Source: a virus
Taxonomy: Duplodnaviria; Heunggongvirae; Uroviricota; Caudoviricetes
DNA length: 24,146 nt
IMG/VR virus record: IMGVR_UViG_2698536506_000006
Reading direction: 5' to 3' (one strand)
The position numbers and the translations under genes were made by a program. The first letter of the stretch is position 1; the number at the start of each line of letters is the position of its first letter. The notes under the pieces are model-generated. The model saw only the letters and a program-made list of their open reading frames with translations, was not told the origin of the DNA and did not search any database. Positions 1 to 21,526 of the stretch are shown one piece after another.

Positions 1-1032
1 TCAAAAACTTGCTATTGATGTTGGTAGTGTTGCCAGCGGATTAAACCGTAATGCAGTTTCCAGGTGATCCGGTGCCAGATGTGCGTAACGCATAGTCATT
101 TTTATATCGTGATGCCCTAGAATTTTTTGTAAGGCCAGGATATTTCCACCCGACATCATGAAGTGCGCCGCAAACGTATGGCGCAGAACGTGTGTCAGTT
201 GACCGCGAGGGAGCACGATAGACGTTTTTTCCATCACGGATAAAAATTGAAAATAGCAGTCTGTAAAGAAATTGAACCCATCAAGCGCCATGATCTCTTC
301 GTAAAGCTCTTTACTGATAGGGATGCTTCTGTTTTTCTTCCCCTTCGTTCTTACAAAGGTAATTCGGTATTTGGTCACCTGTGAGCGGGTAAGATTTACG
401 GCTTCTCGCCAGCGTGCGCCTGTGCTTAAGCATATTTTGACTACCAGAGCCAGAATTGGGTCCTGACGTTTGCAATCAGCCAGCAGTTCAACAATCTGCT
501 CATGGGTAAGCCATGCCATCTCTTTTTCTGCGATGGTGAATTTTCGCATGTTCTCCAGTGGGTTTGGATACGACCATTCGCCCAGGCGGGATAGTTCGCT
601 AAAAACACTACTTAGATAGCTTTGCTCCAGGTTAATGGTGACCGGGCTTGCTCCTTTCTTCCATTTCTCGCTGAAGTAGATCTCTCCTGTCAGGCGTTTA
701 TCTCGATAGTGGGCAAACATTTTAGAGGTGAGATCGGTTGCAAGGGGATTGCCCAGAGCGTCAACTATCAACAGCAATTTGTCATAGACATGCTGCCCAG
801 CTGTCAGAGATTTACCATGTAGTTTGAACCATAGCTCAACCACGTCTTTCAGTGTTCGACGATCCACTGATTCACCCAGCCAGGGCTTTGCTTCGGTTTC
901 TTCCATCGTGTGACGCTCAAAAGCCAGAGCTTCACCTTTGGTGGCGAATTGTTTACGCACACGACGCCCACTACGTCCGGCGGGGTAACATTCGCAAAGC
1001 CATTTTCCTGTGGTGAGTTTTCGTACTGCCAT
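1..1032 (-). CDS. int: Tyrosine integrase (P2/186 Int family)
   Basis: ORF ends with stop at 1-3. Start chosen at ATG 1032-1030 (MAVRKLTTGKW...), preceded by GGAGGG with about 8 nt spacing. C-terminal region carries tyrosine-recombinase-like motifs (HVLRHTFA...MMSGGNILALQKILGHHDIKMTMRYAHL). The ORF track extends the frame to 1110. Confidence 0.9.
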   Translation of the reverse strand: MAVRKLTTGKWLCECYPAGRSGRRVRKQFATKGEALAFERHTMEETEAKPWLGESVDRRTLKDVVELWFKLHGKSLTAGQHVYDKLLLIVDALGNPLATDLTSKMFAHYRDKRLTGEIYFSEKWKKGASPVTINLEQSYLSSVFSELSRLGEWSYPNPLENMRKFTIAEKEMAWLTHEQIVELLADCKRQDPILALVVKICLSTGARWREAVNLTRSQVTKYRITFVRTKGKKNRSIPISKELYEEIMALDGFNFFTDCYFQFLSVMEKTSIVLPRGQLTHVLRHTFAAHFMMSGGNILALQKILGHHDIKMTMRYAHLAPDHLETALRFNPLATLPTSIASF

Positions 1033-1218
1033 AAAAAATGCCCTCCAGTGGAGAGCATTTTTACTGTATGTATAACCAGTGTCAATGTATGAAATCCTGC
1101 GACCATACATCTCACTGAAGCCATAATGAAGTTGGCTATTTTTTGCTATGTGAGTATGTGACTTTTGCGGTTAGCCTGCGGCTCATTGTTATATTAGGCG
1201 CAGATATAAAAGCAAAAT

Positions 1219-1410
1219 TTATCGCGAGTTTTTAGTACAGATTTTTTTTGATTTACTAATAGTTCCATCATTGCAAACGAACTTTCCATCGGAGGTACAG
1301 TGAGAGACACCTCCTTTTTTCCCAGAACAAGGATAATTTTTAGCATAGGTAGTTAGTGGGTTTAATAACAAAGAGCATGATAAAACCACAAAAAATACCT
1401 TACCAAGCAT
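1219..1410 (-). CDS. Small Cys-rich secreted protein or lipoprotein (moron), 63 aa
   Basis: Strong RBS (GGGAGGA, about 5 nt spacer) before the ATG. N-terminal hydrophobic signal-like segment [16 protein letters not shown]. Five Cys in the predicted mature part. AT-rich relative to neighbours. Lies 15 bp downstream of cI on the same strand. Confidence 0.55.
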
Positions 1411-1425
1411 AGTTTCCTCCCGGTA

Positions 1426-1995
1426 TTACCTAACGTACTTAATTGTTAAACTTATAATTTTTCCAATTATTTTAACATCTTCTATCTTGCACTCGAAGGC
1501 TCTGTTTCCACCTTCAACGAAGATTCTTCCACCGGGTAAACGAGTAATGTCGCGGATTGTTATTTCGCCATCAATACTTATTACCCATTTACCATCACGT
1601 ATATCATCAAATTCTTTATCACAAATAAATTCAGAATTGTTATCTGTGATGACAAAAGGTTTTTTAAACGTAGAGGGTAGAAATCCCTTATCAAAAATAT
1701 AAAAACCGTCTTCACGCAAGGCACCATCAGATAATACATATTTAGCAACTTCCATAGTATTTGTATTACCTGAAGTTTGCTTTGAACCATGCCCGGTTGT
1801 GAGCCAATTAAGCGAGGTGCCTGTTTCAAGGGCGCACTGGATTACCCATTCTGCTGGGAATGAGTCACGCATGTAGCGTGTGGCGAGTGTACTTTTAGAG
1901 ATTCCTAAATGATCGCACAACGCCTGTCGAGTCTTGAATCCATAAGCTTCTACCATGCGCTCTATAGCGCCTCGTCCGCCTTTCTCCAAATTCAT
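1426..1995 (-). CDS. cI: CI immunity repressor (phage 186 CI type)
   Basis: About 190 aa. Shares the pattern I recall for 186 CI (EAYGF..., ...RY.R..., CALETG..NL.WL.TG.G). Sits between int and a divergent apl/cII operon. ATG at 1995 chosen; an in-frame GTG at 2001 is also possible. Confidence 0.8.
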   Translation of the reverse strand: MNLEKGGRGAIERMVEAYGFKTRQALCDHLGISKSTLATRYMRDSFPAEWVIQCALETGTSLNWLTTGHGSKQTSGNTNTMEVAKYVLSDGALREDGFYIFDKGFLPSTFKKPFVITDNNSEFICDKEFDDIRDGKWVISIDGEITIRDITRLPGGRIFVEGGNRAFECKIEDVKIIGKIISLTIKYVR

Positions 1996-2019
1996 GGTCA
2001 CTCCAAGTGAACTTTTATC

Positions 2020-2048
2020 TTGACGATTTCACTGTGCGATCGTATGTT
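2020..2048 (+). promoter_or_regulatory. Candidate sigma70 promoter (pR-like) for the apl-cII early operon
   Basis: TTGACG at 2020-2025, 17-nt spacer, TATGTT at 2043-2048. RBS ACGAGGA precedes the apl ATG at 2121. Lies in the cI/apl divergent switch region. Confidence 0.4.
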
Positions 2049-2120
2049 TATGGTGTTCACAAAATACAAACGATCCGTATTCGTCCTGATTAATCATCAT
2101 TAAACGAGGAATGTTGCATC

Positions 2121-2342
2121 ATGAGACCTAACATTTCAATCACTCTTACCACGCCTCATGTGACTATTGAACGCTATAGCGAGCTGACAGGGCTATCCAT
2201 CGATACCATCAATGACATGTTGGCTGATGGACGCCTTATCCGTCACCGTCTGCGCAAAGATAAAAAACGCGAAAAAGTGATGATCAACATAGCAGCAATG
2301 ACCGTTGATGCGCTTTCAGAATGCAATCTAAACCTTAATTAG
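2121..2342 (+). CDS. apl: Apl/Cox-like excisionase and transcriptional regulator
   Basis: 73-aa ORF, first gene transcribed away from cI. Position and size match the Apl/Cox slot of 186/P2. Confidence 0.65.
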
Positions 2343-2374
2343 TTCGATTCTGAGATACATCAGAGGCATTGACC

Positions 2375-2884
2375 ATGTTTGATTACCAAGTTTCCAAACA
2401 TCCACATTTTGATGAAGCCTGTCGTGCATTCGCATTGCGCCACAACCTGGTGCAACTGGCAGAACGTGCTGGCATGAATGTGCAGATTCTGCGGAACAAG
2501 CTGAACCCAGCTCAACCTCATTTATTAACCGCACCAGAAATCTGGCTGCTTACCGATCTGACTGAAGATTCAACGCTGGTAGATGGTTTTCTGGCTCAGA
2601 TTCACTGCCTGCCATGCGTACCGATTAATGAGGTGGCAAAAGAGAAACTGCCACATTACGTCATGAGTGCAACCGCAGAGATCGGGCGTGTTGCTGCAGG
2701 TGCGGTATCTGGCGATGTAAAAACCAGTGCAGGTCGTCGTGATGCTATCAGCAGCATTAACTCTGTAACACGACTGATGGCGTTGGCTGCTGTTTCATTG
2801 CAGGCCCGTTTACAGGCTAACCCTGCGATGGCGAGTGCAGTTGATACCGTGACTGGCCTCGGTGCTTCATTCGGTTTGCTGTGA
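2375..2884 (+). CDS. cII: CII-like lysogeny establishment regulator (186 CII type)
   Basis: ATG at 2375 preceded by CAGAGG. 169 codons, the size I recall for 186 CII. Positioned directly after apl. Confidence 0.7.
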
Positions 2885-2891
2885 GGTGCTT

Positions 2892-3188
2892 ATGCTGACG
2901 AAAGAACCATCATTTGCATCGCTGCTGGTAAAGCAAAGTCCGGCAATGCACTACGGTCACGGCTGGATCATGGGTGAGAATGGAAAACGCTGGCATCCAT
3001 GTCATTCACAAGATGAATTGCTGTCTGAATTGACCACGAGGAAACGGAGAAAGTCAAAATGTATGCAGCGGAAAGTGAAGTGGTTTATCAGTTTCGTTAC
3101 AGAGGGGAGAGTTATTCAGTACCTGAAGATGATTTGCTCTGTTGTTATCCGTCGTTGTCGGGCGATGGCAGTTACTTTTTCACGCTAA
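2892..3188 (+). CDS. Hypothetical early protein (uncertain; overlaps the next ORF)
   Basis: ATG at 2892 preceded by GAGGTG. The frame stays open to 3188 but the C-terminal part overlaps 3059-3283 in another frame and looks less protein-like. Confidence 0.3.
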   Translation: MLTKEPSFASLLVKQSPAMHYGHGWIMGENGKRWHPCHSQDELLSELTTRKRRKSKCMQRKVKWFISFVTEGRVIQYLKMICSVVIRRCRAMAVTFSR

Positions 3189-3283
3189 AGGATGGGACGT
3201 TTTTACGGGGAGAGCAGGTTAAAGAGACGATACGAAAAAATGTATCTCCTCTTGAACGTTACCGTAAGAACAAAGAACGATAG
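3059..3283 (+). CDS. Hypothetical early protein, 74 aa
   Basis: ATG at 3059 preceded by ACGGAGAAAG. Plausible composition. Occupies the fil/dhr-like slot of 186-type phages. Confidence 0.5.
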   Translation: MYAAESEVVYQFRYRGESYSVPEDDLLCCYPSLSGDGSYFFTLKDGTFLRGEQVKETIRKNVSPLERYRKNKER

Positions 3284-3305
3284 TTGCGTTTTGGGGATAT
3301 GAATT

Positions 3306-3647
3306 ATGGCAATTAATGGCGCTGCGGCGACTGTTCCATTAAGCCCCGGTGAACGCCTGAATGGACTTAATCACATTGCGGAGTTAAGGGCGAAAGTTTT
3401 TGGTCTGAATATTGAGTCAGAGCTTGAGCGGTTTATTAAAGATATGCGTGATCCACGCGATATTAATAGCGAACAAAATAAACGGGCACTGGCTGCCATA
3501 TTCTTTATGGCAAAAATTCCAGCTGAACGTCATAGCATCAGCATTAATGAGCTGACCACTGACGAAAAGCGGGAGTTGATTAAAGCAATGAATCATTTTC
3601 GTGCAGTAGTGAGCTTATTTCCCAGACGGCTAACCATGCCGAATTAA
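3306..3647 (+). CDS. Hypothetical phage protein, 113 aa
   Basis: ORF with GGGGA upstream of the ATG, within the early operon. Confidence 0.55.
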   Translation: MAINGAAATVPLSPGERLNGLNHIAELRAKVFGLNIESELERFIKDMRDPRDINSEQNKRALAAIFFMAKIPAERHSISINELTTDEKRELIKAMNHFRAVVSLFPRRLTMPN

Positions 3648-3714
3648 CCAACTAATGAAATTAATGGCGTAAACCCGCCGGGCATCCCTTTATCTAAATT
3701 CAGGAGAATTGATT

Positions 3715-3948
3715 ATGCGTAATATTGAAACCCTCTCGACCAAAACCGGACCGGATGACGCAGGGCTTAATATTTTACTGACAGAGGCTCGTCTGGAAGA
3801 ACGCCGGGCAAGGGCTGAAGCAATGGCAGCTCGCCTTGATAGCCTGGCGTGTCATATCACATCCCGCCAGCTAACCCACGTCGAAGCGGCAGAACTGCTT
3901 CGTGTGACTGCTGAAGCAATCCAGAACGAAGCGCAGGAGATCCACTAA
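3715..3948 (+). CDS. Small phage protein (DUF2732-like), about 77 aa
   Basis: AGGAGA RBS 7 nt before ATG 3715. Stop overlaps the next start (TAATG). Resembles the small conserved ORF family common in P2-like early operons. Confidence 0.55.
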   Translation: MRNIETLSTKTGPDDAGLNILLTEARLEERRARAEAMAARLDSLACHITSRQLTHVEAAELLRVTAEAIQNEAQEIH

Positions 3949-4169
3949 TGGCTGATGCAATGGATCTCGTACAGCAGCGCGTTGAAGAAGAACGCCATAT
4001 CCGTGCTGCCCGTGCCAAAACGCCGGGCGTGTCCCGCGTGCTTTGCATTGAGTGTGAAGCGCCAATTCCGCCAGCACGCCGCCGTGCCATTCCGGGTGTG
4101 CAGCTTTGCATTACCTGTCAGGAAATCGCAGAGCTGAAAGGCAAACATTACAACGGAGGTGCTGTATGA
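3948..4169 (+). CDS. TraR/DksA-family C4 zinc-finger protein
   Basis: 73 aa with CxxC...CxxC (CIECEAPIPP...CITCQ), typical of phage TraR-like proteins. Stop overlaps the dam start (ATGA). Confidence 0.75.
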   Translation: MADAMDLVQQRVEEERHIRAARAKTPGVSRVLCIECEAPIPPARRRAIPGVQLCITCQEIAELKGKHYNGGAV

Positions 4170-5023
4170 GCACCATCCTGAAATGGGCGGGAAATAAAAC
4201 TGCCATAATGTCCGAACTGAAAAAACATCTTCCTGCTGGCCCGCGACTGGTTGAACCTTTCGCGGGTTCCTGTGCTGTGATGATGGAGACGGATTATCCC
4301 AGCTATCTGGTTGCGGATATTAATCCTGATTTAATCAACCTCTATAAAAAGGTTGCCGCTGATTGTGAATCGTTTATATCTCGCGCCAGAGTTTTATTTG
4401 AGATCGCAAACAGGGAGGTGGCTTATTACAACATAAGGCAGGAGTTTAATTACTCAACTGAAATTACTGATTTCATGAAAGCGGTATATTTCCTGTATCT
4501 CAATCGTCACGGTTACCGTGGTTTATGTCGCTATAACAAGAGCGGGCATTTCAACATTCCCTACGGTAATTATAAAAATCCGTATTTCCCTGAAAAAGAA
4601 ATTCGCGCATTTGCAGAAAAGGCCCAGCGAGCAACGTTTATCTGCGCCAGCTTTGATGAAACGCTGGCGATGTTGAAGGCGGGGGATGTGGTGTATTGCG
4701 ATCCGCCGTATGACGGTACGTTTTCCGGCTATCACACTGACGGCTTCACTGAAGATGACCAGTATCACCTGGCATCTGTTCTTGAACATCGGTCATCAGA
4801 AGGACATCCGGTCATTGTTTCTAACAGTGACACATCCCTGATCCGTTCGCTGTATCGCAATTTTACTCACCACTACATCAAGGCAAAACGCAGCATCGGT
4901 GTGGCAGCTGGCGAGGGTAAATCAGCAACAGAAATTATTGCTGTTTCCGGGCCGCGCTGCTGGGTGGGATTTGATTATTCGCGTGGCGTGGATAGTTCTG
5001 CCGTGTACGGAGTACGTGCATGA
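4166..5023 (+). CDS. dam: DNA adenine methyltransferase (Dam family, N6-adenine)
   Basis: Begins [11 protein letters not shown]. AdoMet-binding motif EPFAGSCAV and catalytic DPPY ([11 protein letters not shown]). GGAGGT RBS. Translationally coupled to the upstream and downstream genes. Confidence 0.9.
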
Positions 5024-7407
5024 GTCATGCCGATATGAACAACTGCTGCGGCTTTAACGAAGCTGCCGCATCGTTCTCATGGAACAGCCCGAAAAAGGCC
5101 ATTAACCCTTATCTGGACCCGGCGGAAGTTGCGCCGGTTTCTGCGCTTTCAAACCTGATCACTCTGTACGCTACTGATAACGAGCAGGAACAACTGCGCC
5201 GCGAGGCACTGAGTGATCAGGTCTGGGAGCGTTATTTCTTTAATGAATCCCGTGATCCTGTCCAACGCGAAATGGAGCAGGATAAGCTCATTAGCCGGGC
5301 AAAGATGGCGCATGAGCAGCAGCGTTTTAATCCAGACATGGTCATTCTGACTGACGTCAACGCCCAGCCTTCCCATATCAGCAAGCCGCTGATGCAACGT
5401 ATTGAATATTTCAGCAGCCTGGGCAGGCCAAAGGCTTATTCCCGCTATTTGCGTGAGACGATTAAGCCATGTCTGGAACGACTGGAGCATGTACGCGACA
5501 GCCAGCTATCTGCATCTTTTCGTTTTATGGCAAGCCATGAAGGGCTGGACGGTCTGCTGATCCTGCCTGAAATGAGTCAGGATCAGGTGAAACGCCTGTC
5601 TACCCTTGTCGCTGCGCATATGAGCATGTGTCTTGATGCCGCTTGTGGTGATTTGTACGCCTCCGATGATGTTAAGCCAGAAGAAATCCGCAAGACATGG
5701 GAAAAGGTGGCTGCAGAAACCCTGCGACTGGATGTCATACCGCCTGCGTTTGAGCAACTCCGCCGGAAAAGAAACCGCCGCAAACCTGTGCCTTATGAAC
5801 TCATTCCGGGTTCGCTGGCGCGTATGCTGTGCGCCGACTGGTGGTATCGGAAATTATGGAAGATGCGTTGCGAATGGCGGGAAGAGCAGTTGCGTGCTGT
5901 CTGCCTGGTCAGCAAAAAAGCATCTCCCTATGTCAGCTATGAAGCCGTGATGCATAAACGTGAGCAGCGCCGTAAGTCGCTGGAGTTTTTCCGTTCTCAT
6001 GAACTGGTGAACGAAGACGGCGACACGCTGAACATGGAGGATGTGGTAAACGCCAGCAGCAGCAACCCGGCGCATCGCCGCAACGAGATGATGGCCTGTG
6101 TTAAAGGCCTGGAGCTTATCGCGGAAATGCGTGGTGACTGCGCCGTTTTCTACACCATCACCTGTCCGTCACGTTTCCATTCCACGCTAAATAACGGCAG
6201 GCCAAACCCGACCTGGACCAACGCGACAGTAAGACAAAGCAGCGATTATCTGGTCGGCATGTTTGCTGCATTTCGTAAGGCTATGCACAAAGCCGGGTTG
6301 CGCTGGTATGGCGTGCGGGTGGCTGAGCCGCATCATGACGGCACAGTTCACTGGCACCTGTTGTGTTTCATGCGCAAAAAAGACCGCCGCGCCATTACTG
6401 CATTGTTGCGTAAGTTTGCCATCCGTGAAGACCGCGAGGAGCTGGGCAATAACACGGGGCCACGCTTTAAGTCTGAGCTGATAAACCCGCGCAAAGGAAC
6501 GCCGACAAGCTACATTGCGAAATATATCAGTAAGAATATTGACGGGCGTGGTCTGGCTGGCGAGATCAGTAAGGAAACGGGTAAATCCCTGCGTGATAAC
6601 GCTGAATACGTTAATGCCTGGGCGTCTCTGCATCGTGTTCAGCAATTCCGCTTCTTTGGCATTCCGGGGCGTCAGGCTTACCGTGAACTGCGATTGCTGG
6701 CTGGTCAGGCGGCAAGGCAACAGGGTGACAAAAAAGCAGGTGCGCCGGTACTGGATAACCCGCGCCTTGATGCCATCCTGGCTGCTGCTGATGCTGGTTG
6801 TTTTGCCTCCTACATCATGAAGCAGGGCGGCGTACTGGTTCCCCGCAAATATCACCTCATCAGAACCGCTTATGAAATCAACGAAGAGCCGACCGCCTAT
6901 GGCGATCACGGTATTCGTATTTATGGCATCTGGTCACCCATTGCAGAGGGCAAGATCTGCACTCATGCAGTGAAGTGGAAAATGGTTCGTAAGGCCGTTG
7001 ACGTTCAGGAGGCGGCAGCCGACCAGGGCGCTTGCGCCCCTTGGACTCGTGGCAATAACTGTCCCCTTGTTGAAATTTTGAACCAATCAGGGGGCGAATC
7101 ACCCGAACCCAAAGAGCCGGAGGCGCTGCCGGATCTCCATAATCTGAGCGCGAGGGAACGGCGGGAGCTGACGGCCCGGCTGAGGCTGGTAAAACCGAAG
7201 CGGCGAAAAGGGTACAAACAGGAAATTAACGAACAGCAGCGTCAGCAGCTCGACGCTGAGTTGAGGTCCAGAGGGTTTGAAGCGAGTGAAACAGAGGTGG
7301 ATCTGCTTTTGCGTGGCGGCAGCATTCCGTCCGGGGCCGGGCTGCGTATTTTCTACCGCAACCAGCGCCTGCAGGAAGATGATAAGTGGCGGCAGTGGTA
7401 TTCATGA
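5020..7407 (+). CDS. A: Replication initiation endonuclease gpA (rolling-circle, HUH family)
   Basis: 795 aa. HUH-like motif [10 protein letters not shown] and active-site tyrosine region YIAKYISK. Position after the early regulators as in P2/186. Confidence 0.9.
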
Positions 7408-7497
7408 ATAGCCACAAGGGCACGCAATTACTGCAACGAGTCAGAAGTATCTCATTGAAAGCAAAAAAGCATTTTACATCCGGAAACTTCTTCTATA

Positions 7498-7528
7498 CTG
7501 TATATATAAACAGTGGATATATATACAG
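7498..7528. promoter_or_regulatory. Inverted repeat, candidate operator or promoter element upstream of ORF 7562
   Basis: CTGTATATATA (7498-7508) and its reverse complement TATATATACAG (7518-7528) separated by 9 nt, about 35 bp upstream of an AGGAGGGA RBS. Confidence 0.35.
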
Positions 7529-7561
7529 TTTATTTATCCGGCAGTATCGATAGGAGGGAAG

Positions 7562-7750
7562 ATGCAGGACTATTTTCTGGAGTCGTTGAAGCTCCAGCGC
7601 ATTGATTTTTTTATCAAGCTTGTAGCGGCGAGTGAGTGTGATGACGAAGAAAAGCAGCTGGCGATTCAGTGGGTTTCTGAGTTAACGGATGAGCTGATGG
7701 CGAAGATTCGTGCTCATGAATACAACCGCTCAATGGATATTCCCGGTTAG
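7562..7750 (+). CDS. Hypothetical protein, 62 aa
   Basis: Strong RBS AGGAGGGA. Acidic, helical-looking small protein. Lies between gpA and cos. Confidence 0.5.
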   Translation: MQDYFLESLKLQRIDFFIKLVAASECDDEEKQLAIQWVSELTDELMAKIRAHEYNRSMDIPG

Positions 7751-7828
7751 CAGCAGGAACGTTGCTGGCGCAAGAACTGGCTTCTTACGTCAGCAAGGTT
7801 GAACAACGAGTCCAGCGAGGCGTTAGCC

Positions 7829-8095
7829 ATGGCTAAATCCAACAGCAAATTCCAGACCGTCTATGAGGGGCAGGTGCTTGAGCGTTTCGAGCCCGGTGGA
7901 TGGGTCTTGTTTCAACGCCGTTCTGAATATGGCGGTAAGTTCTGGATGGGACGAACCATGGACGATGTATTTTTGTTTGGTCCCGATCATCCGGTATCTG
8001 GAGGTGAGGCTATGAGCTTCATCATTGATTACGAGGGTGAGCAATTCAGACGGTCTTTACCCGTCGAATATACCCCACAGATACCGCTTTTCTGA
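7829..8095 (+). CDS. Hypothetical protein, about 88 aa
   Basis: ATG at 7829 with GAGG upstream; the frame is open from 7799. Followed by a terminator-like hairpin. Confidence 0.5.
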   Translation: MAKSNSKFQTVYEGQVLERFEPGGWVLFQRRSEYGGKFWMGRTMDDVFLFGPDHPVSGGEAMSFIIDYEGEQFRRSLPVEYTPQIPLF

Positions 8096-8160
8096 GAACC
8101 GGCTGAGTGCATGTCTATGCTGCATGAGATCGCATGATCGTTTGAGGATCGTTTTCGCTG

Positions 8161-8190
8161 AAGCCCGCCAGAACTGGCGGGCTTTTGGTT
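8161..8190 (+). terminator. Rho-independent terminator-like hairpin
   Basis: AAGCCCGCC / GGCGGGCTT 9-bp stem with 6-nt loop, followed by TTTTGGTT. Confidence 0.55.
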
Positions 8191-8231
8191 ATGTCATGCA
8201 GGTGCATGAAAACCGCTACATAAAGCGGGCA

Positions 8232-8250
8232 GGCGTGGCGGGGATACGAG
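8232..8250. other. Candidate cos site (cohesive-end sequence of P2/186 type)
   Basis: GGCGTGGCGGGGATACGAG followed by CGCGCGC. Closely resembles the P2/186 cohesive ends as I recall them (GGCG[A/T]GGCGGGGAAAGCA...). Lies between the A-side and Q-side of the genome as expected. Confidence 0.5.
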
Positions 8251-8297
8251 CGCGCGCCCGGCTTGCTATTTGTTCGTTGCAACATTAGTATTCCTAT

Positions 8298-8450
8298 GCT
8301 CTTTAGCGTTAGGGAACCATTGCGTTCTAGCCGGGCGATAAGCCAGGCTCTAATTTATTGCTCAGTTTAGGGTTGCGAAAGCGACGAATTCGTCGCTTTC
8401 GCTGTCTTTAGTGAAGAGCTCGGCCCGCGCAAGCGGGCCTCACAAGCGGA
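8298..8450 (+). ncRNA. Candidate retron msr/msd non-coding RNA (boundaries approximate)
   Basis: Non-coding stretch immediately upstream of a retron-type RT. Contains a perfect 28-nt palindrome (8375-8402) and a GC hairpin with GCAA loop (8422-8439). Possible promoter TTGCTA (8263-8268), 17-nt spacer, TAGTAT (8286-8291). a1/a2 repeats were not resolved by eye. Confidence 0.35.
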
Positions 8451-9392
8451 ATGTTTATGGAAATTTTATCGGCTGTTAGCAAAGAACTTGGAGTAAACGT
8501 TAACGAGCTGAGGCGGTTATCGAGTGTTGCGCCTAAAAAATATAAAGTCTACACAATTCCTAAACGACAAAGTGGATTCAGGCTTATTGCTCAACCAACG
8601 AGTGAGATAAAGCGAATTCAGCGTGAGGTTGTGAAAATTTTGGCTTCCAAGCTCATCGTGCACGATGCAGCGAAAGCTTATAAAGTTTCTATAGGAATTA
8701 AGGACAATGCCAAAATCCATATGGCAAACTCCTATCTTTTAAAAATGGATTTTCAGAATTTCTTCAATAAAATTAAACCGGCTCTTTTATTTGATAAACT
8801 TCGCTCTCAAGGGGTTGTTTTGTCAGGTGAGGATAAGGAGTTTTTAGAAGGGATTCTTTTCTGGAAACCAGGAAAAAAAAGAAGTATCACTCTCGTGTTG
8901 AGCGTTGGGGCGCCATCCTCACCTTTTGTTAGTAATTTTGTAATGTATGATTTTGATAATTATATAAACAATTGGTGCTCTGTTAGGAATATTTCATATT
9001 CAAGGTATGCTGATGATATTACATTTTCTACAGATGAGAAGAATATACTTTTTGAGGTCCCGAAAGTAGTAAGGTTTGCATTATCATTATGTGCTAAAGG
9101 TATATCTTTAAATGAATCTAAAACTGTATTCACGTCTAAAGCTCATAATAGACATGTGACAGGTGTGACATTAACAGTTGATGGGGAGCTTTCGCTCGGT
9201 AGGCAAAAGAAGAGAATGATTTCTTCTCTGCTGCATAAATATACACTAGGCTTACTGGCTAAAGAGGATGTTATAAGCCTTAAGGGCTTTGTTGGACATG
9301 CTTTATATATCGAGCCTAAATTTATTGCTAGAATGAAAATTAAATATGGGAAAGAAGTAATACATGCGCTTTTTTCTGAGGAGGGGATGTGA
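8451..9392 (+). CDS. Retron-type reverse transcriptase
   Basis: RT motifs: GAPSSPFVSN (motif B-like), RYADDITFS (YADD catalytic motif) and the retron-characteristic VTG motif (NRHVTGVTLTVDG). AT-rich. Alternative start at ATG 8457. Confidence 0.85.
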   Translation: MFMEILSAVSKELGVNVNELRRLSSVAPKKYKVYTIPKRQSGFRLIAQPTSEIKRIQREVVKILASKLIVHDAAKAYKVSIGIKDNAKIHMANSYLLKMDFQNFFNKIKPALLFDKLRSQGVVLSGEDKEFLEGILFWKPGKKRSITLVLSVGAPSSPFVSNFVMYDFDNYINNWCSVRNISYSRYADDITFSTDEKNILFEVPKVVRFALSLCAKGISLNESKTVFTSKAHNRHVTGVTLTVDGELSLGRQKKRMISSLLHKYTLGLLAKEDVISLKGFVGHALYIEPKFIARMKIKYGKEVIHALFSEEGM

Positions 9393-11044
9393 ACTCAAAG
9401 TATACTAAATCACCAAATGACATTCGTACATTATTGCAGTCTTATGTAAATAAAACTGAAGATGGTTTAGAATTCAGTAAAGAGAACATTCCTGAAGAGG
9501 TATCTTCGTTATATAAGGAAATTGAAGATGCACCATTTCTTATAAATAAAGTCGCCATCTCAGACTATAAAAGAGTCAGGGATCTTTTTGTTTCGATCGA
9601 CAAAAAACTAACAGTGTTTGTTGGTGATAATGGTTACGGTAAAACCACCATTCTTGAAGCATTATTTATTGCTTTAAGTTGGTTTAGAGCAAATGTTCAA
9701 AAAGAAGATAAAAGCGGTTTTCATATAAAAGATGGTGATATTAACAATCATAATGATGTCAATTATGCTGCAATAACTGCGCAGTTTAAACTTAAAAAAA
9801 TAACGTCAAATATTTTAGTTACACGTGTTAAAGATGGAGTATCACAAAAAAGAAATAATGAGTTGCTTTCTATAAAAGAGATGGCGTCATTCTTTCGTGT
9901 TGTGAATTCATATTATGAAGATGTAAGCCTTCCGGTTCTTGCATATTACTCTGTATCAAGATCTTCAAATGGTGCAGGCATAGATAATAAAAGAAATGTT
10001 AATAATTCTGTGCGTCGATGGACTAAGCTTGATGCTTATGAAGATATAGAGTTTGATCGCCGTGACTTCGGTGAGTTTTTAAATTGGTTCATATTTGTTA
10101 ATAATAAGGCATTGTCTGAGGAGTCCTTGATACCAGAAAAACAAAGAGATCAACTTGTTATTGATATCTCAAAGCTTAAGGTATCTTTGGAGGTTTTGAA
10201 ATCTTTCAGTGATGTTGATAGAAGAACATTAATAGATATAGAAACACAAATTGCTAATAAAGAGTTGATTCTTAATACGTTACCGTCTACACCAAATGGT
10301 TTAAGTCGTTCAAAAGATATTGTTGCTAATGTTAAAAGGGCAATAATTAATTTCCTTCCTGAAATTAGCTCTGTTGAACTTCAATATACTGAAAATGAAG
10401 TTCGTTTAGTTTTAGCAAAAGATGATTTACTATTAGATGCCCAGCAACTCTCTCAAGGGGAGAAAACTATACTTACATTAGTGGGGGATTTAACAAGACG
10501 CTTGGTGTTGCTGAATCCTAAGTTAAATAATCCACTTCAAGGGAAAGGTATAGTATTAATTGATGAAGTTGATCTTCATTTGCACCCAAGCTGGCAGCAA
10601 AACATTATTGAGAAATTGCAGCATACATTTCCTAACGTACAATTCATAATTACCACTCATAGCCCTCAAATTGTATCGACAGTTCCAAGTAAATGCTTGC
10701 GCATCCTTGAGGAAATAAAAAACCCTTCGACAGGCATGAAGGAATTACGTGTGCTTTTACCATCATCTCAAACAAAAGGTACTAAGAATTCGTACGCTTT
10801 GCTTTATGGGATGAAAACAGATCCTGTACCTAATGTAAAAGAAGTCGCATGGCTGAGCACTTATAAGAAATTTATTGAAAACAGGCAGCAGGATTCGGAG
10901 GAAGCCATAATGATAAGGAAAAAGTTAGACAAGCATTATGGAATTGATCACCCATTATTACTTGAGTGTGATGGTATAATTCGTGTATTAAAGCTAAAAG
11001 ACAAAGTGCGGGGTGAGTCTGGCAATAAGGAATCTAAACAATGA
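9389..11044 (+). CDS. Retron-associated ATPase (PtuA/Septu-like, ABC/OLD-type)
   Basis: Walker A GDNGYGKTT, Walker B VLIDEVDLHLH, H-loop-like ITTHSPQ. GTG start overlapping the RT stop (ATGTGA), preceded by GAGGAGGGG. Confidence 0.8.
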   Translation: MNSKYTKSPNDIRTLLQSYVNKTEDGLEFSKENIPEEVSSLYKEIEDAPFLINKVAISDYKRVRDLFVSIDKKLTVFVGDNGYGKTTILEALFIALSWFRANVQKEDKSGFHIKDGDINNHNDVNYAAITAQFKLKKITSNILVTRVKDGVSQKRNNELLSIKEMASFFRVVNSYYEDVSLPVLAYYSVSRSSNGAGIDNKRNVNNSVRRWTKLDAYEDIEFDRRDFGEFLNWFIFVNNKALSEESLIPEKQRDQLVIDISKLKVSLEVLKSFSDVDRRTLIDIETQIANKELILNTLPSTPNGLSRSKDIVANVKRAIINFLPEISSVELQYTENEVRLVLAKDDLLLDAQQLSQGEKTILTLVGDLTRRLVLLNPKLNNPLQGKGIVLIDEVDLHLHPSWQQNIIEKLQHTFPNVQFIITTHSPQIVSTVPSKCLRILEEIKNPSTGMKELRVLLPSSQTKGTKNSYALLYGMKTDPVPNVKEVAWLSTYKKFIENRQQDSEEAIMIRKKLDKHYGIDHPLLLECDGIIRVLKLKDKVRGESGNKESKQ

Positions 11045-11709
11045 AATTCCTTGCTAGAAATCCCATTGGTCCAGGTGTTTTAGCCGAGTTTGACTACAAT
11101 ATTCATGACTGGAATGCTTTTAAACGGCGACATAAACAATTAGTCTGGGTCGGTTTAGTTGAAATGCAAGGGAAGAGATGTGCGTATTGTGAGCGGAAAA
11201 TAGATATTCACAATAGTGATGATAAGCATATCGAGCATTTTTTGCGTAGAAGCCAGCATAGGCATTTAACATTTGAATGGTCAAACTTGTTCGGCTCTTG
11301 TGCTGAAAATAATCACTGCGGTTTTTACAAAGATGAACAGAGCTATCAGGAGCAAGACCTAATCAAGGCCGATAATGATGACCCCACACATTTTTTCCAT
11401 TTCGCTATTAATGGAAATATGGATATTCGTCCGGGGTTATCGCGAAACGATGAGCGAAGAGCTGAGGTTACTATAAGGGTTTTTAACCTGAATGGTGAAA
11501 AGGGCGGCGTGAAAACTGAGCGCATCAATGCAATATCAGAAACATGGTCATTGATAGAGAGATTTGTTTCTACAGCTGAAGAGTTCATCGAAGAGGGACT
11601 TTATGATGATAGTGTCCGTAACGAACTTCGAGACGAGTATTATAAAGAAATAGACCCCAGACCATTCTCTACTGCGTTGCGTGATGTTTTTGATACGATG
11701 CTTCCTTAA
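11041..11709 (+). CDS. Retron-associated HNH endonuclease (PtuB-like)
   Basis: HNH-type motif CAYCE...DDKHIEHF...N...SCAENNHC. Start overlaps the ATPase stop (ATGA). Confidence 0.8.
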   Translation: MKFLARNPIGPGVLAEFDYNIHDWNAFKRRHKQLVWVGLVEMQGKRCAYCERKIDIHNSDDKHIEHFLRRSQHRHLTFEWSNLFGSCAENNHCGFYKDEQSYQEQDLIKADNDDPTHFFHFAINGNMDIRPGLSRNDERRAEVTIRVFNLNGEKGGVKTERINAISETWSLIERFVSTAEEFIEEGLYDDSVRNELRDEYYKEIDPRPFSTALRDVFDTMLP

Positions 11710-11741
11710 ATTAAAGAGTCTCATTTGAGACTCTTTAATTT
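11708..11741. terminator. Bidirectional terminator between the convergent retron operon and portal gene
   Basis: Near-perfect inverted repeat AAATTAAAGAGTCTCA / TGAGACTCTTTAATTT with a 2-nt loop, between the HNH stop and the portal stop. Confidence 0.6.
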
Positions 11742-16586: not shown

Positions 16587-19403
16587 ATGAGCCTGAGTCC
16601 CGCACGGCAGCATCGCCTGCGCGTTCAGGCTGAACAGGCCGCCCGCGAGGGCGGCAGTGTTCGCCACGCATCGGGCTATGACCTGATGCTGCTGCAACTG
16701 GCGGAAGACCGCCGCCGTCTCAAGGGCGTTCAGTCCACGGTCAAAAAAGCGGAAATCAAGGTGGAGCTGCTGCCGAAGTACGCCGCCTGGGCAGAGGGTG
16801 TCCTGGCTGCCGGAGGCGCTCAACAGGATGACGTGCTGATGTACGTGATGCTGTGGCGCATTGATGCCGGAGATTATGCCGGGGCGCTGGAGATCGGGCG
16901 TCACGCCCTGCGTCATGGCTGGGTGATGCCGTTGGGTAACCGCAACGTGCAGACCGTGCTGGCAGAGGAAATGGCAGACGCGGCGCAGAGCGCAATGCTT
17001 GCCGCCACCGGCTTTGATGCTGATCTGTTGCTGCAGACGCTGGAGCTGACAGACGGTCTGGATATGCCGGACCAGTCACGGGCACGTCTGCATAAAGCGA
17101 TTGGCGCTGTCTGGACCGACGGCATTGGTAATACGTCAGGCGTCATTCCCGGCAAAACCATTACGGAGCGACAGGCAGCAGAAGGGCTGATCTCCAACGT
17201 GCTGCGTGTCGAGCGGGCGCTGGAAAGGTGTGTGAAGCAACAGCCGCCGCAGAAGGTGTATGACGCTGCGGTGTCGTTTGCCTTCAACGTGGGAACGGGC
17301 AATGCCTGCAGTTCCACGCTGGTGAAATTACTCAATCAGCGGCGCTGGGCAGATGCGTGCCGACAGTTGCCGCGCTGGGTTTATGTGAAAGGTGTTTTTA
17401 ATCAGGGGCTGGATAACAGGCCAACCGCCGCGCAGGCAAAGTTATTCAGTCAGGCCAAAACACGAGTACAGGAACTTCAGCAGACTTATAACGGCTTGTT
17501 GGGGGCGGTCCAGAGACAACGTCAGGCACTTAAAGAATCAGGGATTGATACCAGACAACTCAGTAGTGCCCAGCGAGAACTTAAAAAAAATGCTGAAGAA
17601 ACAAGGCAGGCACTGGAGGGCCAGCAAAAAGCACTTAAACGTCTGGGTGAACAACAGGCACGGATGAACGCTGCCAGAGAACAATACTCAAGACGGCTTG
17701 AAGTGCGCGATCGCATCGCAGGAGCCGGAGCCACTACCACGGCTGCAGGGCTGGCAATGGGTGCGCCAGTGATGGCGGCAGTAAAAAGCTATACCAGCAT
17801 GGAAGATGCCATGAAAGGTGTGGCAAAGCAGGTCAATGGTCTGCGTGACGATAATGGCAACCGCACTGCACGTTTTTATGAAATGCAGGATGCCATCAAG
17901 GCTGCCAGCGAACAGTTGCCGATGGAAAACGGTGCGGTGGACTTCGCTGCACTGGTTGAAGGTGGTGCGCGCATGAACGTCGCAAACCCTGACGACAGCT
18001 GGAAAGACCAGAAACGTGACCTGCTGGCCTTCGCCAGTACGGCAGCAAAGGCGGCAACAGCCTTTGAGCTGCCAGCGGATGAACTGTCAGAAAGTCTGGG
18101 GAAAATCGCCCAGCTCTACAAAATACCTACGGCAGCAGTAACTCGAACCAGCAGCGCGTTGTCCTGGCTGGCTGGCGCACCACTGGCACTGCTGCGACGC
18201 GGGCTTGCTTCATCGGGCAACGCAGCGGGTTTACTTACTGCGCCGTTGTCGTCTTTGCGCCGCACGGCATCACTGACGGGGAATGTCCTGAAAACTGTAG
18301 CAGGTGTGCCGGTTGCACTGTTGCGGTCTGGATTATCCGGTTTACGTGCTGTTGCTGTGATGTTTATGAATCCACTGGCAGCACTACGCGGTGGACTGGC
18401 TGCCGCAGGCGCGGTGCTGCGAGTGCTGGCATCCGGTCCGCTGGCGATGCTGCGCGTTGCTCTGTATGCCGTATCTGGTCTGTTAGGTGCTCTGCTCAGT
18501 CCGATAGGTCTTGTGGTTACTGCACTGGCAGGCGTGGCGCTGGTTGTCTGGAAATACTGGCAACCCATCACCGCATTTCTCGGTGGCGTGGTGGAAGGAT
18601 TCAAAGCGGCGGCAGGTCCCATCAGTGCTGCATTCGAACCACTTAAGCCTGTGTTTCAGTGGATTGGCGACAAAGTGCAGGCGCTGTGGGGCTGGTTTAC
18701 TGATCTGCTGACGCCTGTTAAGTCGACCTCTGCCGAACTGCAGAGCGCAGCGGCAATGGGGCGACGATTCGGGGAGGCACTGGCGGAAGGGCTGAATATG
18801 GTCATGCATCCGCTGGACTCCCTGAAATCCGGCGTTTCCTGGTTGCTGGAGAAACTCGGCATTGTCAGTAAAGAGGCTGCAAAGGCGAAACTGCCGGAAA
18901 GCGTGACGCGTCAGCAACCTGCGACGGTGAATGCAGACGGTAAAGTGATGATGCCATCAGGTGGTTTTCCATCATGGGGATATGGTTTTGCGGGGATGTA
19001 TGACAGCGGTGGGTATATCCCGCGCGGGCAGTTTGGCATTGTCGGTGAAAACGGGCCTGAAATTGTCAACGGCCCGGCAAACGTGACCAGCCGGAGAAAT
19101 ACAGCTGCACTGGCTGCCGTTGTTGCCGGAATGATGGGTGTTGCTGCCGCGCCAGTAGAGCTTCCACCGTTGCACCCTTTGGCATTTCCCGCGAAAGGCG
19201 GTGAAGCGATGGTGAGTCGCGCAGCCACTGTGCCGCCCGTTCAACGGATTGAGGCACCGACGCAGATCATCATCCAGACGCAGCCAGGACAAAGTGCGCA
19301 GGATATTGCGCGGGAGGTGGCACGCCAGCTTGATGAACGTGAACGCAGGCTGAAGGCAAAAGCCAGGAGTAACTACAGCGATCAGGGGGGATACGACGCA
19401 TGA
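16587..19403 (+). CDS. Chimeric 938-aa ORF: gpM-like N-terminus (about aa 1-170), lysozyme-like C-terminal segment (about aa 175-280), then tail tape-measure protein gpT-like (about aa 290-938)
   Basis: N-terminus has gpM-like features (...AQQDDVLMYVMLWRIDAGDYAGALEIGRHALRHG...). Middle has GH24 phage-lysozyme C-terminal motifs (VYDAAVSFAFNVGTGNACSSTLVKLLNQRRWADACRQLPRWVY). The remainder is coiled-coil plus Ala/Leu/Gly-rich hydrophobic repeats typical of tape-measure proteins, ending just before gpU. Junctions approximately at nt 17080-17110 and 17400-17455. Confidence 0.7.
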   Translation: MSLSPARQHRLRVQAEQAAREGGSVRHASGYDLMLLQLAEDRRRLKGVQSTVKKAEIKVELLPKYAAWAEGVLAAGGAQQDDVLMYVMLWRIDAGDYAGALEIGRHALRHGWVMPLGNRNVQTVLAEEMADAAQSAMLAATGFDADLLLQTLELTDGLDMPDQSRARLHKAIGAVWTDGIGNTSGVIPGKTITERQAAEGLISNVLRVERALERCVKQQPPQKVYDAAVSFAFNVGTGNACSSTLVKLLNQRRWADACRQLPRWVYVKGVFNQGLDNRPTAAQAKLFSQAKTRVQELQQTYNGLLGAVQRQRQALKESGIDTRQLSSAQRELKKNAEETRQALEGQQKALKRLGEQQARMNAAREQYSRRLEVRDRIAGAGATTTAAGLAMGAPVMAAVKSYTSMEDAMKGVAKQVNGLRDDNGNRTARFYEMQDAIKAASEQLPMENGAVDFAALVEGGARMNVANPDDSWKDQKRDLLAFASTAAKAATAFELPADELSESLGKIAQLYKIPTAAVTRTSSALSWLAGAPLALLRRGLASSGNAAGLLTAPLSSLRRTASLTGNVLKTVAGVPVALLRSGLSGLRAVAVMFMNPLAALRGGLAAAGAVLRVLASGPLAMLRVALYAVSGLLGALLSPIGLVVTALAGVALVVWKYWQPITAFLGGVVEGFKAAAGPISAAFEPLKPVFQWIGDKVQALWGWFTDLLTPVKSTSAELQSAAAMGRRFGEALAEGLNMVMHPLDSLKSGVSWLLEKLGIVSKEAAKAKLPESVTRQQPATVNADGKVMMPSGGFPSWGYGFAGMYDSGGYIPRGQFGIVGENGPEIVNGPANVTSRRNTAALAAVVAGMMGVAAAPVELPPLHPLAFPAKGGEAMVSRAATVPPVQRIEAPTQIIIQTQPGQSAQDIAREVARQLDERERRLKAKARSNYSDQGGYDA

Positions 19404-21072: not shown

Positions 21073-21291
21073 ATGATGATTTGCCCACTGTGTGGAAGTG
21101 CCGCCCATACTCGCAGCAGTTTTCAGGTATCTTCATTGACCAAAGAGCGTTACAACCAGTGCCAGAACATTAACTGCAGCCATACTTTTGTTACCCATGA
21201 AACTTTTGTTCGTTCGATTGCAACGCCAAAAGAGTCAAATCCGGTTCAGCCGCATCCAATGAAATCAGGACAGGTGGCGCTCTCTCTTTGA
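21073..21291 (+). CDS. ogr: Ogr/B/Delta-family zinc-finger late transcription activator
   Basis: CPLCGSAAH...YNQCQNINCSHTF four-Cys zinc finger closely matching the P2 Ogr pattern (CPLC...H.CQN.NC). Rightmost phage gene, as in P2. Start ambiguous (21040 GTG, 21073 or 21076 ATG). Confidence 0.8.
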   Translation: MMICPLCGSAAHTRSSFQVSSLTKERYNQCQNINCSHTFVTHETFVRSIATPKESNPVQPHPMKSGQVALSL

Positions 21292-21370
21292 CGCTGCCGC
21301 CATTTTGTCGCCATCGTTAAAAAACAGTGCTTCTAACATCATGATTTTAAACAGCTTAAATTTCAGGCAA

Positions 21371-21414
21371 CAAAAAACCCATCAACCTTGAACCGAAATG
21401 GCGGGGTTGATGGG
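21371..21414 (-). terminator. Rho-independent terminator, probably for ybjL
   Basis: 10-bp stem CCCATCAACC / GGTTGATGGG (21378-21387 and 21405-21414); on the minus strand it is followed by TTTTTTG. About 110 nt downstream of the ybjL stop. Confidence 0.45.
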
Positions 21415-21526
21415 CTCCACAAAATGGGGACATCAAAGAAAAGCAGTGGCACTAATTAAGACTGATGCCCTGCGGAAAAGTTCTGCGGTTGTGCAAAAAA
21501 ATTTCATTTTCAGGGCAACTTCAGTT

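Follow-up and report, generated by a model that had tools for sequence, protein, structure and literature searches.

The current study concerns a DNA adenine methyltransferase (Dam) gene located directly upstream of replication gene A (product gpA) in a 24,146-nucleotide (nt) stretch of viral DNA (IMG/VR record IMGVR_UViG_2698536506_000006, Caudoviricetes), the whole of which is referred to here as the window. As judged from its gene content, the window holds a P2/186-like prophage (Fels-2/186-like, Peduoviridae), which carries a retron as well. In the reading that we favor, and to which we would assign a probability of roughly 85%, the gene encodes a GATC-specific, restriction-less orphan methylase, which rides in the CI-repressed early lytic operon as a standard, non-essential passenger and would keep the replicating phage DNA methylated.

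A Dam-family methyltransferase with conserved GATC-reading residues

The gene and its motifs are located as follows.

4166-5023, + strand: Dam-family N6-adenine DNA methyltransferase gene, 285 amino acids (aa)
4259-4273, + strand: S-adenosylmethionine (AdoMet)-binding motif I FAGSC, aa 32-36; EPFAGSC (aa 30-36) aligns to EPFVGAG of Escherichia coli Dam
4514-4576, + strand: DNA-recognition hairpin region YRGLCRYN...NIPYGNYK, from the alignment to 2G1P
4700-4711, + strand: catalytic motif IV DPPY, aa 179-182, aligned to D181-Y184 of E. coli Dam

The protein matches the Pfam profile PF02086 (MethyltransfD12) from end to end (profile positions 1-253 of 253; E=1e-76, 258.5 bits against a cut-off of 22) and the NCBIfam model TIGR00571 'dam' at 321.9 bits against a cut-off of 114.85, which places it among the D12-class, alpha-group N6-adenine DNA methyltransferases. 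Among solved structures, those of E. coli Dam were matched at E=2e-73, with DpnII methylase 1 and T4 Dam as weaker matches, and residues 7-270 share 46% identity with E. coli Dam. A previous sequence-only reading of this DNA had described a Dam-family methyltransferase with FxGxG-like and DPPY motifs, and this description is borne out by both profile matches and by the presence of FAGSC and DPPY, the last glycine of motif I being a cysteine in the phage protein. Counterparts of Y119, L122, R124, N126, P134, Y138, and K139 of E. coli Dam are present in the hairpin region. In E. coli Dam, the residues that read GATC are K9, Y119, L122, R124, P134, and Y138 (PMC4417163), and in the alignment all six are identical in the phage protein (K6, Y117, L120, R122, P132, and Y136). 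From this conservation we infer GATC specificity. The similarity to the housekeeping enzyme of E. coli (PDB 2G1P) thus extends to the fold family, DPPY, and the GATC-reading residues, whereas the phage enzyme differs in a 5-residue deletion after DPPY, in its C-terminal tail, and in being phage-borne and presumably expressed in lytic growth only. The gene product is a phage paralogue, not the host housekeeping orthologue.

The surroundings of the gene are those expected of a solitary enzyme. No restriction endonuclease adjoins dam; its neighbors encode a TraR-like protein and gpA, and every open reading frame (ORF) within 1-8100 has a phage-backbone assignment. The best PADLOC model is likewise that of an orphan methyltransferase (oMTase PDLC03729, 369 bits), and the gene is classed as an orphan, or solitary, methyltransferase on its context and profile matches. 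Comparison of the window dam with the copy beside an Ec67-type retron yields a dN/dS of ~0.25, and the protein is therefore considered to be under purifying selection. The Dam proteins of phages P1/P7 and T4 belong to the same D12/Dam family and similarly have no partner endonuclease, although their sequences are distant (35.8% identity for P7 dam, and matches to T4 Dam structures at E=5e-18) and they reside in other genomic contexts. P1 Dam functions in pac-site methylation, while the Dam of the T-even phages functions in anti-restriction.

The dam gene within the early lytic operon

The genes and sites that surround dam in the early region are listed below.

1426-2001, - strand: CI repressor gene (PF07022 and PF16452)
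2020-2048, + strand: putative early lytic promoter, pR-like (TTGACG-17-TATGTT), flanked by the divergently oriented CI and cox/apl-like genes (promoter scan; promoter function predicted)
2121-2342: cox/apl-like gene (phrog_575)
2369-2884: cII, followed by fil
3306-3647, + strand: DUF5347 gene of the early operon (PF17282, E=3e-33; RefSeq annotation of the identical locus)
3715-3948, + strand: DUF2732 gene, homologue of P2 orf80 and of the 186 DUF2732 gene (PF10809, E=1e-28)
3948-4169, + strand: TraR/DksA-family C4 zinc-finger gene, 73 aa, with CxxC at residues 33-36 and 54-57 (PF01258, E=1.5e-11; TIGR02419, 62.5 bits against a cut-off of 59.7; phrog_54)
5020-7407, + strand: replication gene A, rolling-circle initiator endonuclease, 795 aa (PF05840, E=2.5e-127)

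By family profiles and record comparison, the gene order CI, cox/apl, cII, fil, DUF2732, TraR zinc finger, A matches the annotated early operons of phages 186 and P2. The pR-like site at 2020-2048 was the only + strand promoter-like site recovered from 1900-5500 by the promoter scan, and the arrangement of CI, promoter, and cox/apl in the window has the same layout as that surrounding pR of phage 186.

The genes around dam overlap at their junctions. The Dam start codon (ATG 4166-4168) overlaps the stop codon of the TraR-like gene (TGA 4167-4169) in the tetranucleotide ATGA 4166-4169, and the gpA start codon (ATG 5020-5022) overlaps the Dam stop codon (TGA 5021-5023) in a second ATGA at 5020-5023, just as the sequence-only reading had stated for both ends of the methylase. 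The span that it had given, 3948-5023, begins at the start of the TraR-like gene, and Dam proper occupies 4166-5023. A further overlap of 1 nt joins the DUF2732 stop codon (TAA 3946-3948) to the TraR start codon (ATG 3948-3950) in TAATG 3946-3950. Shine-Dalgarno-like sequences precede the Dam start codon (GGAGG, 6 nt before the ATG) and the gpA start codon (GGAG, 7 nt before the ATG), and the three junctions together with their Shine-Dalgarno sequences are kept in two related prophages.

Based upon these overlaps and Shine-Dalgarno sequences, we infer translational coupling from TraR to Dam to gpA, for which the record of phage 186 supplies a precedent. According to that record, A appears to be translated only if translation proceeds as far as the end of orf84, tM1, a terminator early in A, should act whenever A goes untranslated, and orf82-84 are not essential. 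A search for a tM1-like terminator early in gpA of the window, where the DNA cannot be aligned with that of 186, yielded no terminator-like site on the + strand. In phage 186, the DksA/TraR-like gene is followed by orf82-84 (exonuclease-like, DUF5405, and PAPS-reductase-like; 186 locus 3391-5248), with 4-nt overlaps running into A, whereas in P2 the slot is occupied by orf83 alone, a DUF5405 gene (P2 locus 3270-3545), which likewise enters A through a 4-nt overlap. The overlap chain of TraR, Dam, and gpA is therefore a known architecture of the P2/186 phage group, and P2/186-like phages have, between the zinc-finger gene and A, a second, small region of variable content, which is filled by Dam here, by three unrelated ORFs in 186, and by one in P2. 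The G+C content of Dam is 46.7%, beside 56.3% for TraR and 54.1% for gpA, and a moron-like acquisition would fit.

Distribution of the Dam block

When examining the distribution of the early block, it is evident that the methylase gene is an ordinary, already known, and routinely annotated member of a common P2-like assemblage. Of 5426 complete E. coli genomes, 1245 contain the 1.6-kb block spanning DUF5347, DUF2732, TraR, Dam, and the start of gpA, mostly at 95-99% identity, and RefSeq annotates the gene in these E. coli copies as 'DNA adenine methylase'. The block aligns as 1607 rather than 1601 nt in most genomes because the TraR/DksA-like gene of the window has lost 6 nt (Gln-Arg) and encodes 73 aa, where related prophages usually have 75. 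At least 1000 contigs encode the exact Dam protein, and the 90% cluster to which it belongs comprises 4038 members, including one named 'retron EC67 DNA adenine methylase'. The gpA-to-portal flanks of this clade occur in 1296 genomes. Since the Dam block occurs in 1245, ~96% of the backbone clade, nearly all of its members carry the block regardless of their cargo.

Outside of the E. coli chromosomes, 58 phage records contain the block at the DNA level, among them those of Salmonella phage RE2010 and of many P2-like phages of Klebsiella. Fels-2 and SopEPhi share with the window the backbone segment directly upstream of the gpA-portal hotspot described below. The earlier claim that some P2/186-like elements carry dam is well supported by these matches. 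RE2010 and the Klebsiella phages have 96-97% nucleotide identity to the window across 3600-5200 and encode a DNA adenine methyltransferase between their zinc-finger and replication proteins. Within this group as a whole (Fels-2, SopEPhi, RE2010, and the Klebsiella P2-like phages; Felsduovirus-type Peduoviridae), Dam protein identity reaches 99.3%. These phages are intact and inducible, whereas the prophage of the window is defective, at ~21 kb.

A retron as cargo in the gpA-portal hotspot

The retron and the terminator that precedes it have the following parts.

8163-8186, + strand: G+C-rich hairpin and T-run, the terminator closing the early/A-distal backbone (from the sequence; conserved in four loci)
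8298-8366: msr (Rfam RF00170, 55.1 bits against a gathering score of 52)
8451/8457-9392: reverse transcriptase (RT) gene (PADLOC RT_I-A, 435 bits)
9389-11044: PtuA gene (PADLOC, 602 bits; NCBIfam, 460.7 bits, below the cut-off of 500)
11041-11709: PtuB gene (PADLOC, 377 bits; NCBIfam, 151.3 bits against a cut-off of 150)

The msr, RT, PtuA-type SMC-like ATPase, and PtuB-type HNH nuclease follow one another in the order of a type I-A retron, to which type the cassette is assigned from its sequence. The RT has 313 aa when read from the ATG at 8451 or 311 aa from that at 8457, the latter being the length in most cluster members and in the solved homologues. Its closest solved relative is the type I-A complex of E. 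coli FORC_082 (9N69; RT 376 bits, PtuA 532 bits), while Ec78 and Ec83 are clearly more distant. Homology of the backbone ends at ~8258, and the cargo occupies 8259-11709, after which comes the portal gene on the opposite strand. With 8200-11720 as the query, 1256 genomes match only the first 58-66 nt, and the title of Dodd & Egan 1996, as it is given in PMC6868368, is consistent with this boundary. The retron cassette itself was found in just 2 of the 5426 complete E. coli genomes.

The hotspot cargo was surveyed in a sample of 58 hotspots spread across 1301 matching records. The same gpA and portal flanks enclose HsdR-N/P-loop genes, PIN, AIPR, TIR, DUF262, DprA with PRTase, Ec86-type retrons (including that of BL21), and Ec67-family retrons, and 51 of the 58 sampled hotspots have non-retron cargo. 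These flanks mark the gpA-gpQ defence hotspot that Rousset et al. 2022 described. The retron is thus an independent and swappable cargo of the gpA-portal defence hotspot.

Two further features of this region are of note. The msd hairpin (8375-8402, set against 24765-24866 of the compared locus) is 48 nt shorter than in the sole two near-identical copies, those of E. coli AREA_497 and M37H. The missing piece sits between two copies of GAATTC in the hairpin arms, leaving a stem of 12 bp versus ~34 bp. Either the piece was truly deleted or a long palindrome collapsed during assembly, and the shortening might change how the PtuA/PtuB effector senses msDNA. Just 5' of the terminator hairpin, there are three GATC within 23 bp (8128, 8136, and 8147; span 8128-8150), two of which are kept in the FORC_082, Ec67-type, and BL21 loci. 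Chance could produce such a cluster about once in a window of this size, but it may still be a site, at the place where the early operon ends, that responds to SeqA or Dam.

The parallel with Ec67

The sequence-only reading had pointed out that the window combines dam with a retron, as does the Ec67 element, while noting that the short RT (313 aa) with separate effectors is unlike that of Ec67. Both observations hold. The Ec67 model NF038237, a long fused RT/endonuclease profile (~570-590 aa), scores the window RT at 113 bits against a cut-off of 450, and PtuA and PtuB are encoded separately. The Ec67-family retron locus of E. coli OkiPb01683 contains the Dam block in the same order (DUF5347, DUF2732, TraR, Dam, gpA), with the same ATGA junctions and a Dam protein of 285 aa that is 93.6% identical to that of the window. 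However, the retron of that locus has a fused RT-Toprim (type I-C), in contrast to the separate RT, PtuA, and PtuB of the type I-A retron described here, and three GATC lie in the ~250 nt upstream of its RT, whereas the window retron has none. The enzyme of the Ec67 element is reported to have 285 residues with ~44% identity to E. coli Dam, and three GATC reportedly lie near its retron promoter, with which the OkiPb01683 locus is consistent.

Similar pairings exist elsewhere. The FORC_082 locus has the same block of TraR, Dam, and gpA, its Dam being 99.3% identical, beside the structurally solved type I-A retron. Dam and a retron reside together in one prophage for at least three retron types. 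In the Ec86 prophage of BL21, which uses the same chromosomal site, a deletion from cII to the middle of gpA (BL21 locus 4090-5535) has removed fil, DUF5347, DUF2732, TraR, and Dam, and the retron is kept; this laboratory host of Ec86 accordingly has no prophage dam. Given the same backbone and its interchangeable cargo, the parallel with Ec67 reflects shared backbone ancestry and neither convergence nor a functional link. Hence, the co-occurrence that had been proposed as a notable parallel is real, but it carries little weight, as it amounts to the same backbone, with Dam proteins 93.6% identical, bearing different cargo in a known hotspot. A Dam methylase function was credited to the Ec67 element by the title of Hsu, Inouye & Inouye 1990 (PNAS 87:9454), as cited elsewhere, and its prophage is the 186-related one of Dodd & Egan 1996.

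Alternative explanations

Could Dam and the retron constitute a functional pair, with Dam methylating the multicopy single-stranded DNA (msDNA) or promoter and thereby controlling or triggering the retron, or with the retron guarding against loss of Dam? The presence of both in prophages with at least three retron types would invite this view, as would the three GATC upstream of the Ec67-type RT and the triggering of Ec86 by phage Dcm (reported in a preprint). Retron-Sen2 is triggered by over-expressed E. coli, Salmonella, or P1 Dam via GATC in its msDNA hairpin, but this triggering strictly requires the hairpin GATC (Bobonis et al. preprint), and there is no GATC in 8151-9580 of the window, and thus none in the promoter, msr, or msd of its retron. 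The non-coding region of the FORC_082 retron has no GATC either, and the reported type I-A trigger is nuclease damage to msDNA, not methylation. The distribution is also unfavorable, with Dam in ~96% of the backbone clade and the retron in 2 genomes, as is the terminator that stands between the dam operon and the retron, while the Ec86 prophage of BL21 keeps its retron after having lost Dam by deletion. Based upon the GATC-free interval, the distribution counts, and the intervening terminator, this pairing was rejected; direct coupling of Dam to the retron is argued against by the sequence, and the effect of methylation on retron triggering that had been suggested earlier finds no sequence support in a non-coding region devoid of GATC. 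We consider a functional pair of this kind to be very improbable. A role at the origin of replication fares no better. To locate the ori core, the nick site annotated in P2 and the rep_origin of 186 were carried over to the window by aligning the gpA proteins:

7025-7060, + strand: P2/186-type ori nick-site core inside gpA, GCGCCCCTTGGACTCGTGGCAATAACTGTCC (position by homology only)

The conserved core reads …GCGCC…CAATAACTGT… at ~7025-7060. Dam-controlled origins are familiar from oriC and P1, the dam stop codon overlaps the gpA start codon, and phage 186 has a GATC ~35 nt from its annotated ori position, all of which might suggest that Dam regulates gpA replication via an origin GATC, with co-translation serving as origin licensing. 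Yet the core contains no GATC, the nearest being at 6954 and 7132 (~70-90 nt off on each side), and the density of GATC in gpA is ordinary (10 in 2388 nt). Furthermore, P2 and 186 have homologous gpA and ori with no phage dam, and the 186 ORFs in the dam slot are annotated as non-essential. With no GATC within ~70 nt of the mapped nick core, action of Dam at the gpA origin was likewise rejected, the proposed effect of methylation on origin use having no basis in the ori sequence, and we attach hardly any credence to it.

It is also conceivable that the enzyme is an adenine methylase of non-GATC specificity, or that it is inactive in a decayed prophage. The D12 class does include non-GATC enzymes, the equivalents of N120 and R137 are altered, motif I is without its last glycine, and the prophage carrying the gene is defective. 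Conversely, the equivalents of R124, L122, P134, Y119, K9, and Y138 are all retained, the score is far over the Dam-subfamily cut-off, the ORF is intact, with the same allele on at least 1000 contigs and under purifying selection, and the near-identical protein of the Ec67 element has been described as having Dam function (in a title as cited elsewhere). This scenario is accordingly judged to be highly unlikely, and a GATC-specific orphan methylase of the early operon is still the preferred reading. Several observations nonetheless weigh against it. Relative to E. coli Dam, the substitutions N120 to R (R118) and R137 to N (N135), both near the recognition hairpin, could result in a different flanking-sequence preference or processivity, and the housekeeping-Dam equivalog NF008152 scores the protein at 288.1 bits, short of its cut-off of 441. 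What the phage would gain is not obvious, as host Dam has the same predicted specificity, and neither P2 nor 186 has dam, both managing without the gene. Avoidance or enrichment of GATC was rejected as a signature of selection, since the window has 91 GATC versus 82.7 +/- 8.9 expected and is neither enriched nor depleted. Lastly, the prophage of ~21 kb is defective, which renders a role in progeny DNA moot for this particular copy.

One further idea links the methylase to retrons in general: a backbone Dam might act in phage-phage conflict, serving anti-restriction and, as a side effect, triggering retrons with GATC in their msDNA hairpin, a response demonstrated for retron-Sen2, in which case the cargo retrons of Dam-positive phages would be selected to avoid GATC in msDNA. 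If true, a GATC-free msDNA would keep the prophage from setting off its own abortive-infection system upon induction. The msd region, as read by eye, is free of GATC at all four loci inspected (the window, FORC_082, the Ec67-type locus, and Ec86 of BL21), which is about what chance predicts for four short sequences, and the idea of msd avoidance is neither supported nor excluded by these sequences. We regard the scenario as a whole as improbable.

The prophage and its decay

Beyond the early operon and the hotspot, the window has several additional features.

1-1110, - strand: integrase gene
7562-7750 and 7829-8095: small ORFs after gpA (ORF list)

By profile families, the portal and terminase genes of the window follow the cos-proximal region, as in the P2/186-like layout. 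The sole perfect consensus LexA box of the window, CTGTATATATAAACAG at 7498-7513, is located upstream of a 62-aa ORF, and the two resemble the SOS-controlled p95/tum unit of phage 186. In related prophages a DinI-like gene comes next, and an unrelated 88-aa ORF (phrog_2100) is in that place here. At the right end of the prophage, the RybB small RNA gene (21369-21447, - strand; Rfam, 105 bits) lies just past an ogr-like zinc-finger gene (21074-21292). The insertion site between rcdA and rybB/ybjL is also used by the Ec86 prophage of BL21 and the AREA_497 prophage. At 16587-19403, a single 938-aa ORF joins the N-terminus of the small terminase, an endolysin domain, and the C-terminal part of the tape measure. 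As indicated by this fusion ORF, head-completion, lysis, and tail genes amounting to ~12 kb have been lost, and the prophage is therefore defective. The AREA_497 prophage shares the early region and retron of the window, but it has a different deletion (portal to baseplate V).

Proposed role of the phage methylase

The role proposed here for the gene is the following. A single transcript from the CI-repressed pR-type promoter would encompass cox/apl, cII, fil, DUF5347, DUF2732, TraR, dam, and A, and translation would proceed along the chain of overlapping frames that ends in the initiator gpA. Because dam shares a CI-repressed operon with A, the methylase is expected to be made only upon infection or induction, together with the replication protein. 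This would provide extra Dam capacity while the phage DNA replicates at high copy, and host Dam is described in the literature as limiting for high-copy DNA. The progeny DNA would then be fully methylated at GATC and presumably protected from GATC-overlapping restriction in the next host, while MutH nicking, SeqA binding, and other effects of GATC left un- or hemi-methylated would be avoided. The location of dam just upstream of A may additionally supply ribosome traffic for the translation of A, comparable to what the 186 record describes. The retron behind the terminator is independent cargo. Dam homologues are common in phages, and orphan methylases are known from the literature to serve anti-restriction. 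In the related SopEPhi, methylation by Dam favors excision (PMC7380047).

As a discovery, the gene has small weight: dam is annotated by RefSeq and is found in roughly one in four complete E. coli genomes, publications of 1990 and 1996 had linked it to a 186-like prophage bearing a retron, and the logic of the hotspot has been in print since 2022. Both of the proposed links, from Dam to the retron and from Dam to the origin, lack the GATC sites that they would need. The apparent parallel with Ec67 is instead resolved as one and the same phage backbone with swappable cargo.

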